In this document: positions 7,219 through 10,622 of the stretch, piece by piece
How the letters are laid out: each line of letters opens with the position of its first letter
Numbering within the stretch: the first letter of the stretch is position 1
Source: a virus
DNA length: 10,622 nucleotides
UHGV virus genome: UHGV-0118722
Strand: one strand, 5' to 3'
Notes under the pieces: model-generated
What the model saw: the letters and a program-made list of their open reading frames with translations, nothing else
Databases searched by the model: none
Told to the model about the DNA's origin: nothing
Made by a program: the position numbers and the translations under genes

Positions 7219-7821
7219 TTAATTTCCTGCTTTCAGTTGCTTAAGACGACGTTTGAGTTCGCCATTCCGTGCCTTTTCGTTATTGAGTCGGCCCGTCTCC
7301 TTATCCAGCTTCGCCCGCAAATCAGTGATCTGCTGTTGATTGAAAGACACCGAATTCTGCGCGGACTTATAAGCGGCAACCACCTGAGCATTCCGCTGTT
7401 TTGCTTCTTGCAGGCGCTGAAAGTTGGATTTAACTGCCGGTTTCTTGTCTACCGGATTGGCAACACGCTTCGCTTTGGCGATCAGTGATTTCTGGAATTT
7501 TGCGGAGTTTTTGCGGGCCGCCTGTCCCATGACGGTACCAAGCGTCTTGATATCCGGCGACTGAGCGTTAGGAATAGCTTTTCCATTCAGTTTCACAGAC
7601 GATATATCGCCAGTATCGTTTACCTGTATGGCAAGAATTTGTCCGTCGTTAAGAACCAGCTTTGCGGTTTTAACTTTAACGCCATCTTTCGTTGTTGCGC
7701 GGTTGCTGGAGTCAACCTCAATTACCGTAACCCCGGTTTTATTGATCGCCGCGATAAGGGATTTCAGCCCCTTTTCATTAACCTGGTCAAAATCGACCGT
7801 TGCATACTTATTTTTCGTCAT
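7219..7821 (-). CDS. hdf: 200-aa paralogue of the central part of the downstream 639-aa protein, Hdf-like
   Basis: The ORF track gives 7219..7830. I prefer the second ATG (7819-7821) because AGGA lies 8 nt upstream of it, whereas the first ATG has no usable spacing. Shared motifs with the 639-aa protein include KNSAKFQ, encoded by a 21-nt stretch that is 20/21 identical between the two genes. Confidence 0.7.
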   Translation of the reverse strand: MTKNKYATVDFDQVNEKGLKSLIAAINKTGVTVIEVDSSNRATTKDGVKVKTAKLVLNDGQILAIQVNDTGDISSVKLNGKAIPNAQSPDIKTLGTVMGQAARKNSAKFQKSLIAKAKRVANPVDKKPAVKSNFQRLQEAKQRNAQVVAAYKSAQNSVSFNQQQITDLRAKLDKETGRLNNEKARNGELKRRLKQLKAGN

Positions 7822-7830
7822 CTGACACAT

Positions 7831-7991
7831 CCTGTGCGAGATTTATTACGTAACTTCTGCGGATTTGCTGAGTAACAGGGAAAATCCGATACAACGGGTT
7901 AATGAACGAGTCGCCATGCGTAACTATGACGTTGAAATGCCACAGTCGCTCTCCTTTATGCAAAGTAACTTCTCAACCGGTCATTTGTTGC
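7831..7991 (-). promoter_or_regulatory. 160-bp intergenic region upstream of the operon; possible internal promoter or operator
   Basis: Non-coding gap between two minus-strand genes. It contains the 7-bp inverted repeat CGGATTT-N15-AAATCCG at 7860-7888. No promoter hexamers could be assigned confidently by eye. Confidence 0.3.
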
Positions 7992-8273
7992 TTAAGAGGC
8001 ATTTCTATTGAGGTACGAATCGATAATCCTTTGTAACTTTTCAAGAATGAGCCTGTTATTGATGCTGCAAATAATAGTCACGCAATTCTGAAGACTTTCA
8101 TCCATACCCTTATATTCCGCGAAATACATGCCTATAAAGCCTGCAAGTACGGCAGCAATACACTCGGCCATCAATTGCCTGCATGACGCTTCGTAACGTT
8201 TTTCACGAACCCCATTCAGAAACGAATGCACCCCGCCAAGGATGGAGAGGAGCATTATTGTGAAATCAAACAT
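7992..8273 (-). CDS. Small two-helix membrane protein (93 aa), holin-like
   Basis: GAGGAAA ribosome-binding site 7 nt upstream of the ATG (8271-8273). Two hydrophobic segments (FTIMLLSILGGVHSF and IAAVLAGFIGMYFA). It is the first minus-strand gene after the divergent region next to the invertase. In P1 the lyd holin genes head the darA operon, so it may be LydA-like, but I do not recognise the sequence. Confidence 0.6.
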   Translation of the reverse strand: MFDFTIMLLSILGGVHSFLNGVREKRYEASCRQLMAECIAAVLAGFIGMYFAEYKGMDESLQNCVTIICSINNRLILEKLQRIIDSYLNRNAS

Positions 8274-8400
8274 AACTATTTCCTCAATAGTGAATTAAAT
8301 CTCATTGGGAAACGGTATGTACTTTGTGATTTCCACACATACTGGTTTTTGTTAATTAAAATCAGCAGCTTGCTATAAATAACGATAGTGAGCAGAAAAT
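8274..8400. promoter_or_regulatory. Divergent intergenic region between the holin-like gene and the invertase
   Basis: 127-bp AT-rich spacer between divergently oriented genes. It contains an imperfect palindrome GTATGTACTTTGTGATTTCCACACATAC (8315-8342), the palindrome TTAATTAA (8352-8359), and TTGCTATAAATAACGATAG just upstream of the invertase ATG. Confidence 0.35.
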
Positions 8401-8961
8401 ATGCTAATAGGCTATGTACGCGTATCAACAAATGAACAAAACACTGCTTTACAACGAAATGCCCTTGAAAGCGCAGGATGTGAGCTAATTTTTGAGGACA
8501 AGGCGAGCGGCAAAAAGGCTGAACGCCCTGGGTTAAAAAAGGTTCTTCGTATGCTTTCCAGAGGTGACACCCTGGTCGTATGGAAGTTAGATCGTCTTGG
8601 GCGCAGCATGCGTCACTTAGTTGTGCTGGTGGAAGAGCTGCGTGACAGAGGCATTAACTTCCGGAGTCTCACTGACTCCATCGACACCAGTACACCAATG
8701 GGGCGCTTTTTCTTTCACGTAATGGGGGCGCTGGCAGAAATGGAACGTGAACTTATTGTTGAACGTACACGCGCTGGACTTGATGCAGCTCGCGCAGAAG
8801 GTCGAATAGGTGGGCGTCGGCCTAAATACCAGAAAGAAACATGGCAGCAAATGCGGCGATTGCTGGAGAAGGGCATCCCCCGTAAGCAGGTTGCAATCAT
8901 CTATGATGTGGCTGTTTCCACTCTTTATAAGAAGTTTCCGGCGTCATCATTTCAATCCTAA
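8401..8961 (+). CDS. cin: Serine DNA invertase of the Hin/Gin/Cin/Pin family (186 aa)
   Basis: N-terminus [22 protein letters not shown] with the catalytic Ser in VRVST, the conserved ...[12 protein letters not shown]...[14 protein letters not shown]...[19 protein letters not shown]... core, and a C-terminal helix-turn-helix ...[20 protein letters not shown]. It closely resembles Gin and Pin as I recall them. I use the symbol cin because of the P1-like context, but pin or gin is equally possible. Confidence 0.93.
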
Positions 8962-8978
8962 ACCTTGGTTTAAGAGAA
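8953..8978. other. 26-bp crossover site for the serine invertase (hix/gix/cix-like)
   Basis: CAATCCTAAACC-TT-GGTTTAAGAGAA has palindromic inner arms AAACC/GGTTT around a central dinucleotide at 8965-8966, the same architecture as hixL (TTCTTGAAAACC-AA-GGTTTTTGATAA). The invertase stop codon (8959-8961) lies in the left half-site. Confidence 0.75.
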
Positions 8979-10004
8979 CTCGGTACCAGCGGTGAAAAGA
9001 TCCCCCTGTTGAGCACGGCTAACACATGGAGTGCACGCCAGACTTTCAACGGCGGGATCACCGGGGCGCTGACAGGGAACGCCGATACCGCAACGAAATT
9101 GAAAACAGCCAGAAACATTAATGGCGTCAGGTTCGATGGTTCTGGTGACATTAATATCAATACTCTGGTATCGCGCGGTCGCGTAACGGCCCTGGAGGCG
9201 AATGCACAGGGAACATCCGGGATTCAGCTGTATGAGGCATACAACAATGGCTACCCTTCCCCCTATGGCAATGTGCTTCACCTTAAAGGTGCCACCGCTG
9301 CTGGCGAAGGTGAGTTATTCATTGGCTGGAGTGGCACGAGCGGTGCCCATGCGCCCGTACATATCCGTTCGCGGCGGGATACTGATTCTGCCAACTGGTC
9401 TGAATGGGCGCAGGTCTATACGTCAAAAGATTCAATTCCCGGCGTCAATGCCAAAGGGGATCAGGATACCTCTGGTAATGCGGCTACAGCGACCAAGTTG
9501 CAGACAGCATGTACTATCAACGGCGTCTCGTTTGACGGTTCTAAAAATATTGAGCTAACGGCGGAAGATTTAAATCTACAGGAAACGGTAAACAAGGCTG
9601 ATAACGCGGTTCAAAAGACAGGCGATATCTTGTCCGGTGGACTTACTTTTGAAAACGACTCAATCCTTGCCTGGATTCGGAATACTGACTGGGCGAAGGT
9701 TGGTTTTAAAAATGATGCCGACAGCGATACTGATTCATACATGTGGTTTGAAACAGGCGACAACGGCAATGAATATTTCAAATGGAGAAGTCGCCAGAGC
9801 ACCACAACAAAAGACCTGATGAATCTTAAATGGGATGCTTTGTCTGTCCTTGTTAAAGCCCTTTTCAGCAGTGAAGTAAAAATATCGACACTCAATGCAC
9901 TAAGGATATTTAATTCATCTTTTGGTGCTATTTTTCGTCGTTCTGAAGAATGCCTGCATATCATCCCTACACGAGAGAATGAGGGGGAAAATGGGCTTTG
10001 TTGA
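8967..10004 (+). CDS. Tail-fibre variable C-terminal cassette, promoterless and truncated at its 3' end by an IS element
   Basis: The frame is open from 8931 through the crossover site with no upstream gene in frame, so no start codon is expected; the ORF-track start at 9009 is a TTG. It contains repeated tail-fibre motifs [28 protein letters not shown] and [28 protein letters not shown]. Native sequence ends at 9993; the last three codons and the stop (10002-10004) belong to the IS terminal repeat. Confidence 0.75.
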
Positions 10005-10622
10005 ATAAATCAGATTTCGGGTAAGTCTCCCCCGTAGCGGGTTGTGTTTTCAGGCAATACGCACGCTTTCAGGCATACCTGCTTTCGTCATTTTGTTCAG
10101 CGCTCGTACCAGGGCCATAGCCTCTGCAACCTGACCATCGTAGTCACGCAGTGTCAGTGAACCTCCGAACAGCTGTTTTACCCGGTACATCGCCGTTTCC
10201 GCTATCGAGCGACGGTTATAATCTGTTGTCCATTTCCACCGCGCATTACTCCCGGTCAGCCGCTGATTCGCAACAGCACGGTTACGGTCTGCATATTCAC
10301 CGGGCCAGTAACCCGCGCCTTTTCGGGGCGGGATAAGCGCGCTGATTTTCTTACGCCGCAGTTCATCGTGACAGAGCCGGGTGTCGTAAGCGCCGTCTGC
10401 CGATGCTGCCCTGATTTTTCTGTGAGTCTGCCGGATAAGACCCGGGAAGGCTTCTGAGTCCGTCACATTGTTCAGCGACAGGTCTGCACAGATGATTTCA
10501 TGTGTTTTGCTGTCAACTGCCAGATGCAACTTTCGCCATATACGACGGCGTTCTTTGCCGTGTTTTTTGACTTTCCATTCGCCTTCACCAAAGACCTTCA
10601 GCCCGGTGGAATCAATCACCAG
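9994..10622 (-). mobile_element. IS903/IS102-group (IS5-family) insertion sequence, partial (continues beyond the window)
   Basis: The terminal sequence GGCTTTGTTGAATAAATC at 9994-10011 matches the IS903 inverted repeat as I remember it. The sequence just inside differs from IS903 itself, so this is a relative. It contains a transposase ORF on the minus strand. Confidence 0.8.
10050..10622 (-). CDS. IS5-family (IS903-group) transposase, C-terminal part (N-terminus lies right of the window)
   Basis: The minus-strand frame is open to the window edge and ends ...RDYDGQVAEAMALVRALNKMTKAGMPESVRIA, with ...ADGAYDTRLCHDEL... upstream, typical of IS903-group transposases. The track's start at 10619 is an internal Met. 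Confidence 0.85.
   Translation of the reverse strand: MVIDSTGLKVFGEGEWKVKKHGKERRRIWRKLHLAVDSKTHEIICADLSLNNVTDSEAFPGLIRQTHRKIRAASADGAYDTRLCHDELRRKKISALIPPRKGAGYWPGEYADRNRAVANQRLTGSNARWKWTTDYNRRSIAETAMYRVKQLFGGSLTLRDYDGQVAEAMALVRALNKMTKAGMPESVRIA

Follow-up and report, generated by a model that had tools for sequence, protein, structure and literature searches.

The window analysed here is the whole stretch of 10,622 nucleotides from virus genome UHGV-0118722, which corresponds, with 100% identity, to the last 10622 nt of the ENA contig ERZ1755931 NODE_2375. Its core is a block of P1/P7-like phage-plasmid DNA with an insertion sequence (IS) on each side. Within this block the order is odaA, prt/ddrB, odaC/ddrA, darA, odaE/hdf, the lydAB deletion, lydC, cin, cixL, and a truncated Sv', and the gene names were taken from the P7 annotation and the Pfam families of the called genes. 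The features of the window are as follows.

1–779, no strand: ColE1-type mobilisable-plasmid DNA (mbeD region), unrelated to P1, recognised by its match to CP057279.1.
780–1541, no strand: IS1-family element forming the left edge of the P1-like block, labelled 'IS1 family transposase' in matching plasmids, with DDE_Tnp_IS1 detected on the gene of contig L004.
1542–9993, no strand: P1/P7-like phage-plasmid block, with 97–99% identity to P1-like plasmids only within 1541–9993.
7955–7962, no strand: junction (7958/7959) of a 653-bp deletion, positions 6160–6812 of the P7 sequence used for comparison being missing.
7992–8273, minus strand: lydC-like putative holin of 93 aa (Phage_holin_3_3, E=2.6e-07), in a position that fits the P7 annotation.
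8401–8961, plus strand: cin, whose intact ORF encodes a 186-aa serine DNA invertase (Pfam Resolvase, E=4e-51; HTH_7, E=1.9e-18).
8955–9577, no strand: a single copy of the C-segment's internal inverted repeat (623 bp), the proximal part shared by both cassettes, which matches both cassettes of CP034659.1 and CP057937.1.
8956–8975, no strand: cixL crossover site, with the palindromic core TAAACCTTGGTTTA at 8959–8972 and the central TT at 8965–8966, transferred from the P7 annotation (offset 1156).
8966–9993, plus strand: variable tail-fibre cassette, truncated and lying in the silent Sv' position next to cin, with ~343 of 548 codons kept, collinear with S of the relatives and Sv' of P7.
9985–9993, plus strand: predicted 9-bp target GGGAAAATG, deduced from the 9-bp duplication at the NZ_CP069684.1 copy of the IS.
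9994–10622, minus strand: IS903B-family insertion sequence, partial (629 of 1057 bp), assigned by identity to a complete copy.
9994–10011, no strand: 18-bp terminal inverted repeat GGCTTTGTTGAATAAATC at the IS end nearest the transposase 3' end; its reverse complement closes the full copy.
10050–10622, minus strand: C-terminal 190 codons of the IS transposase (Pfam DDE_Tnp_1), with the stop codon at 10050–10052 and the gene leaving the window.

For the fibre cassette, the alignment with S from NZ_CP034659.1 and CP057937.1 and with Sv' of phage P7 is collinear from the cix site to ...GAGGGGGAAAATG(G). Homology to these uninterrupted relatives ends at 9993/9994, where the boundary is ambiguous by 1 base because base 9994 is G in both. 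Past the break, the relatives go on with TGATATAGGGCCACTACG..., whereas the window turns into the IS, and the junction reads …GAGGGGGAAAATG|GGCTTTGTTGAATAAATC…. Up to 9993, the cassette is 99.8% identical to S of CP034659.1 and 99.2% identical to S of CP057937.1. The collinearity up to 9993 places the IS within the variable part of a P1-type invertible tail-fibre cassette, as the original prediction had proposed. The relatives continue for 616 nt past the break, and the notion that the fibre naturally ends here was ruled out by these uninterrupted genes.

In the relatives, S has 1001 aa when joined to its constant part, and the break falls at codon 797, leaving ~204 C-terminal residues missing; the predicted removal of the distal receptor-binding end was thus borne out. 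The IS cuts near the end of a Gp34_trimer-like domain that occupies S residues 696–806 (Pfam profile position 89/116). The fibre ORF of the window extends from 9009 to 10004 and gives a 331-aa product, although its reading frame is open from the cix site at 8964. At the break, GGG (9993–9995) spans the boundary and is followed by CTT, TGT, and the stop TGA at 10002–10004, which makes the earlier statement that the frame stops three codons into the IS essentially right. The truncated product ends in ...E-N-E-G-E-N-G-L-C, and the codons for its Leu-Cys tail come from the IS.

The gene 3' of S in the relatives encodes a 175-aa Caudo_TAP chaperone (U), which is followed by the mirror-image U' and the second cassette (Sv'), the downstream order that had been anticipated. 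The relatives carry S-U and U'-Sv'; within the window there is one cassette, truncated and without a chaperone gene. By comparison with the uninterrupted relatives, what was displaced is ~204 codons together with the link to U. Since these residues are missing and the chaperone gene is disconnected, the host-range alternative encoded by the cut cassette would be dead, a conclusion that is well supported and in line with the expected inactivation of at least one such alternative.

The element at 9994 belongs to the IS903 group and to the IS903B family. Plasmid NZ_CP069684.1 carries a 1057-bp element whose opening 629 nt match the window without a difference (629/629). This copy ends in perfect inverted repeats of 18 bp and is flanked by a direct duplication of 9 bp, ACTTAGGAA; the same IS sequence is found in at least 5000 plasmid records. 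The terminal repeat was found at 9994–10011, starting where it had been predicted to start, and the second 18-bp repeat lies outside the window and is present at the far end of the identical NZ_CP069684.1 copy. The transposase ORF matches DDE_Tnp_1 with E=8.6e-33 over profile positions 7–199 of 200. In sister contig L005, 976 of the 1057 nt of the IS are present, with a 305-aa transposase ORF still open at the contig end; over these 976 nt, identity to the copies named 'IS5-like element IS903B family transposase' in RefSeq is 99.0%. The full-copy match, the DDE_Tnp_1 domain, and the RefSeq comparison together uphold the IS903-group identity; the name IS903B follows the RefSeq-labelled copies, the ISfinder reference itself being outside the comparison. 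A short IS remnant is ruled out by the at least 976 of 1057 IS bases in L005. The window stops within the IS because its source contig, ERZ1755931 NODE_2375, stops there.

The exact 331-aa product, including its IS-encoded tail, was found on 10 ENA metagenome contigs only in a collection of 15 billion proteins. Eight of the 10 were compared with the window, from which they differ by 0–1 SNP over 2–7 kb; they derive from several projects and at least 5 assemblies, for which different assemblers had been used. Because the same junction was assembled independently in at least 8 contigs, it is no assembly artefact but genuine, and it comes from a nearly clonal lineage in several human-associated metagenomes. 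The suspicion of a chimera arises from the source, a short-read metagenome contig in which another join, ColE1-IS1-P1, may itself be chimeric, but identical junctions from several projects and assemblers speak against it. Likewise, a fibre gene with a natural end at this point is contradicted by every relative, all being 93–100% identical up to the break and then running on for ~204 codons. A chimeric junction or a natural gene end is therefore given a negligible probability. Neither PLSDB nor 5,426 complete E. coli genomes nor the GTDB representative genomes (searched with an exact 37-mer) contain the left junction.

The cut cassette is silent beside cin, and the 331-aa 'ORF' as it stands is not an expressed gene; expression of a cin-proximal cassette would require an inversion that links it to Sc, the constant part. 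This cassette is joined to Sc in CP034659.1 and CP057937.1, whereas in the window it sits beside cin, i.e., flipped, and the segment was therefore inverted at some time in this ancestry. The length and position of cin are those of cin in P7 and P1, and it is collinear with P7 cin. The cixL site overlaps the cin 3' end, and its core is invariant in the alignment with the relatives. No second cix core was found in the window, the pattern search giving 1 site (8959–8972).

The two copies of the 623-bp repeat in CP034659.1, and likewise those in CP057937.1, agree without a mismatch for at least 560 nt. Five of the contigs carry names in the MEGAHIT style (k=119 or 127, a multiplicity of ~284 in one case) and pass unbroken through this repeat, and all contigs break in the IS. 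Since at least 560 identical nt should break such assemblies, the partner cassette is probably absent, and with it the second repeat copy, cixR, and Sc; this argument from the lack of a break is indirect and depends on assembler behaviour and on the interpretation of contig names. Without a partner cassette, cixR, and Sc, Cin would have one cix site and nothing to invert. An exact look-up of the 15-billion-protein collection with a model of the truncated fibre joined to Sc (799 aa, in two Sc variants) gave no hit, a weak result as an exact match was needed. Natural enhancer-dependent invertible segments span ~1 to 4.2 kb. The suggestion that inversion is impaired by the distance arising from 1,057 extra bp was left without support; if inversion has been lost, the missing partner cix site and cassette are the more likely cause.

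At the other end of the block, window 1–1537 is 99.3% identical to the 5.1-kb plasmid CP057279.1, and a relaxase gene lies upstream in contig L004. The IS1-odaA junction is the same in CP034659.1 and in sister contigs L005 and L006. The non-P1 DNA beyond the IS1 occurs in two contexts. In the window it is ColE1 DNA, and in L005 and L006 it contains a porin gene; the porin-IS1-odaA flank of these two contigs is 100% identical to NZ_CP034659.1. Between the window and L005, the IS1 shows 8 SNPs and the neighbouring 1.4 kb shows 2. Assembly may have created the ColE1-IS1 join of the window as a chimera, and part of the 'mosaic' picture would then be artificial. A contiguous P1-like genome around dar and cin was not found, as homology ends at IS1 (1541) and at IS903B (9994). 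A repeat search of the window gave nothing relevant to the IS or the deletions. Apparent frameshifts of prt and darA in contig L007 were rejected as signs of decay, being artefacts of a scaffold N-run and a 7-bp join.

Compared with P7, the 653-bp deletion takes lydA and, from its 5' side, two-thirds of lydB, along with the -10 hexamer of the late promoter LPdar. The lysis module expected of a functional P1-like phage-plasmid, the lydA holin and lydB with LPdar, is thus incomplete in the window. The affected interval measures 361 bp in the window versus 1014 bp in E. coli complete-genome relatives, among the matches listed. The deletion is common to all sister contigs and occurs in none of the best 25 of 467 matching E. 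coli complete-genome records, and its junction, taken as a lineage marker, was absent from IMG/VR and GTDB representatives and, among those best-ranked records, from the E. coli complete genomes. In contigs L005 and L006, prt is fused to darA by a further deletion of 3.2 kb. LydC might partly stand in for LydA, and the lyd deletion need not abolish lysis.

We consider it probable, at about 65%, that the silent cassette truncated by IS903B lies at the margin of a P1-derived remnant that is decaying within a mosaic plasmid of Escherichia type. Such a remnant would be bounded by IS1 on the other side and would have lost lydA, lydB, and the -10 hexamer of the dar-operon late promoter; its remnant status and its missing partner cassette, cixR, and Sc form the inferred part of this explanation. 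The original prediction had allowed two end states, a phage-plasmid locked in one host range and a defective element. The defective state is clearly favoured because of the IS1 boundary, the deletion of lydA, lydB, and the promoter, the dar-operon deletion in sister contigs, the IS-scrambled relative, and the lack of a break at the repeat; the IS1 boundary, the deletions, and the unbroken repeat speak against the locked phage-plasmid. P1-like phage-plasmids have been reported to decay into defective plasmids via gene loss and transposases (Pfeifer & Rocha 2024, PMC10879196).

The intactness of cin, lydC, and, in the window, all dar-operon ORFs counts against a remnant. The lineage is only 0–1 SNP deep, which leaves little time for visible decay, and this was also noted as counting against a remnant.

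A simple insertion of IS903B into a complete, inducible P1-like phage-plasmid was weighed as well. Sc and the remaining parts of the C-segment (distal Sv', U', U, Sv, and cixR) would then lie past the IS, and Cin would invert a segment that now measures 5.3 kb, one orientation giving functional fibres and the other truncated, non-functional ones; this corresponds to the locked host range of the original prediction. A clean insertion with a 9-bp duplication is usual for IS903-type elements and is seen at the NZ_CP069684.1 copy, and cin and cixL are intact. The flipped cassette, showing that the segment once inverted in this ancestry, also fits, and an unseen far side is expected when short-read contigs always stop in the IS. 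However, the 623-bp repeat would necessarily be duplicated if the partner cassette were present, and k-mer assemblies are unbroken there; moreover, the lydA/lydB/LPdar deletion, the truncation at IS1, and the sister-contig deletion speak against a working phage. The Sc-joined truncated fibre is also not on record, insofar as an exact 799-aa match was required. On balance, we regard a simple insertion into a working phage-plasmid as unlikely, though a serious alternative.

If the insertion was simple, GGGAAAATG should recur at the other IS end, and the predicted reciprocal junction is ...GATTTATTCAACAAAGCC-GGGAAAATG-GTGATATAGGGCC..., with the IS end followed by GGGAAAATG and GTGATATAGGGCCACTACG. 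An exact 28-mer of the reciprocal junction had no match in the JGI metagenomes, a collection that also lacks the left junction, which makes this result uninformative. The same applies to a degenerate pattern fitting either junction (...AAAGCC-GGGAAAATG-GTGATATAG), which was found in neither the JGI metagenomes nor IMG/VR; neither junction is there. All junction contigs stop inside the IS, and nothing past IS base 976 was recovered.

The distal part of the fibre was also sought as a separate gene, the form in which a reciprocal junction would leave it. A 186-aa fragment was found on 12 contigs, none of them bordering IS903B, and these contigs were rejected as the reciprocal junction, being unrelated disruptions of the same cassette. 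In E. albertii CP099904.1, the separate fragment results from a 1-bp deletion in a GGGGG run, and in SRR12298972 from a different 1-bp deletion. Other causes were an IS3-family element inserted 77 bp upstream, the end of an IS1 lying 157 bp upstream, and further breakpoints.

The IS could also form one side of a larger cargo region with IS903B at both ends, such as a composite transposon or a resistance region, or be the site of a homologous IS903B-IS903B recombination, with unrelated plasmid DNA beyond. IS903 elements form the arms of Tn903. Identical IS903B copies are abundant on multi-IS plasmids of Klebsiella, Escherichia, and Enterobacter, and a record often has more than one of them. The closest complete relative has itself been made a mosaic by ISs, and the uptake of IS-borne cargo by P1-like elements is known. 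Nevertheless, the recovered sequence ends at IS base 976, and the proposal overlaps with the decaying remnant, since a recombination or deletion edge is one way to arrive at a remnant. As an explanation in its own right, it is improbable.

A remnant might also be kept by selection, through an orphan Cin acting in trans on host invertible segments or a domesticated Dar cassette. This reading draws on the intact cin, lydC, and dar anti-restriction ORFs in the window and on the recurrence across the metagenomes of several projects; we consider it a long shot. If it were true, IS903B would mark the edge of a functional module.

The feature is ordinary and already known in kind, consisting of a common IS, a known module, and a phage-plasmid family known to decay in this way. 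It adds one more documented step in the erosion of P1-type phage-plasmids by ISs and deletions into non-phage plasmid cargo, and it shows that a cin or fibre match in a metagenome contig is not equal to a live phage. The junction sequence and the lydAB deletion junction are specific markers that could trace this clone in gut metagenomes.

In comparison with known systems, the element at 9994 shares its terminal repeat and DDE_Tnp_1 transposase with IS903B and IS903 (IS5 family, IS903 group), and nothing of substance differs over the 629 nt in the window and the 976 nt in L005. The order of cin, cixL, the 0.62-kb repeat, and an Sv'-type cassette is that of the C-segment/Cin system of P1 and P7 (Punavirus). 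Window 8396–9109 (cin-cixL) is 96% identical to P7, and the matching region is 98.6% identical to P1. Unlike the P1/P7 C-segment, the cassette of the window is cut after ~343 codons, and U', U, the second cassette, cixR, and Sc are not visible and probably absent. The variable part also differs from P7 Sv', being of the CP034659.1/CP057937.1 type with a 279-bp block that is missing from P7 Sv'.

The closest complete relative is plasmid NZ_CP034659.1 of E. coli ATCC 98082 (454 kb; IncHI1B and IncY), a multi-replicon plasmid in which the P1 genome is broken up by IS26, IS1, and ISSen4. Its dar region is 99.97% identical, and its cassette, which is 99.8% identical overall, is 100% identical over window 9400–9994. 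Unlike the window, it keeps lydA and lydB, next to which lies an ISSen4, and it has both a complete C-segment and an intact S gene for 1001 aa; it further differs by an IS26 in prt and an extra IS3-family element by the porin gene.

The allele of the window is absent from PLSDB, E. coli complete genomes, and GTDB representatives, and in this it stands apart from the defective P1-like plasmids. It nevertheless resembles the defective or IS-disrupted P1-like elements described previously (PMC10879196), in which phage functions were lost by deletions and transposase insertions. The annotation of phage RCS47 shows this inversion module in split form ('cin (part 1)'), whereas here the IS lies in the fibre cassette and not in cin.

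The fibre cassette cut by IS903B adjoins cin in the window, and in relatives CP034659.1 and CP057937.1 it is in the expressed position, joined to the constant fibre part (Sc). We compared the position of the cassette in the following intervals.

Window, 8955-9994: cassette adjoining cin
L003, a relative's locus, 9839-10878: cassette joined to Sc
L002, the other relative's locus, 6556-7595: cassette joined to Sc

Since the same cassette is on the cin side in the window and joined to Sc in the relatives, the C-segment, the Cin-invertible tail-fibre segment, is oriented opposite to that of CP034659.1 and CP057937.1, and this shows that Cin was active in the past. The cix half-sites differ, as expected: the one towards cin reads ATCCTAAACC, and the one towards Sc reads ATCCAATACC.

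Other lineages show independent breaks in the same cassette, no more than about 160 bp away from the IS903B position; this sample is biased, as the contigs were picked because the distal ORF was called on its own. The breaks were located as follows.

L017 (E. albertii plasmid CP099904.1), about 9935-9945
L018, a contig with a separate distal fibre gene, 1271-1283
L020, a contig of the same kind, 1-28
L013, a contig of the same kind, about 435

CP099904.1 lost 1 bp in a GGGGG run, truncating S at 798 aa, and this is the very run that forms the IS903B target in the window. The remaining breaks comprise a further 1-bp deletion, the insertion of an IS3-family element and the end of an IS1.

The first 629 bases of the IS903B copies in sister contig L005 and plasmid pMUB-MIN9-2 (L012) are nearly identical, and past IS base 629 about 27 of 347 positions differ (L005 8388-8734 vs L012 2130-2476). 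This shows mosaicism among IS903B copies as well, and the sequence of the window element beyond its visible 629 bases therefore cannot be assumed.

Comparison with P7 revealed a 653-bp deletion at window 7958/7959 (P7 locus L001 6160-6812 is missing), common to all sister contigs; of the 467 complete E. coli records that match, the 25 top-ranked all lack it. The lost sequence covers lydA (holin), two-thirds of lydB from its 5' end and, in the late promoter LPdar, the -10 hexamer but not the -22 box; the dar operon has probably lost its promoter.

Sister contigs L005 and L006 lack window 2980-6176, a 3.2-kb in-frame deletion whose 693-aa fusion product combines an N-terminal segment from darA with a C-terminal segment from prt/ddrB. 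Sister contig L009 starts exactly at window 6177, which suggests that deleted and undeleted prt-darA variants coexist in some samples.

When window 1-1541, which includes IS1, is compared with L005 1-2506, the DNA left of IS1 is ColE1-type mobilisation DNA in the window and a porin gene in L005 and L006, as in CP034659.1. The IS1 copies of the window and L005 differ by 8 SNPs in 762 bp, and the next 1.4 kb by 2. Given this SNP excess and the differing flanks, the ColE1-IS1-P1 join may be either a cointegrate that IS1 mediated or a chimera from metagenome assembly.

Within the cassette, a 279-bp block (window about 9156-9434; alignment A1 columns 758-1036) is present in CP034659.1 and CP057937.1, whereas Sv', the cin-proximal variable cassette of P7, is without it. 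The last ~300 nt of the CP034659.1 and CP057937.1 cassettes also diverge from P7, and together these differences are typical fibre-cassette mosaicism.
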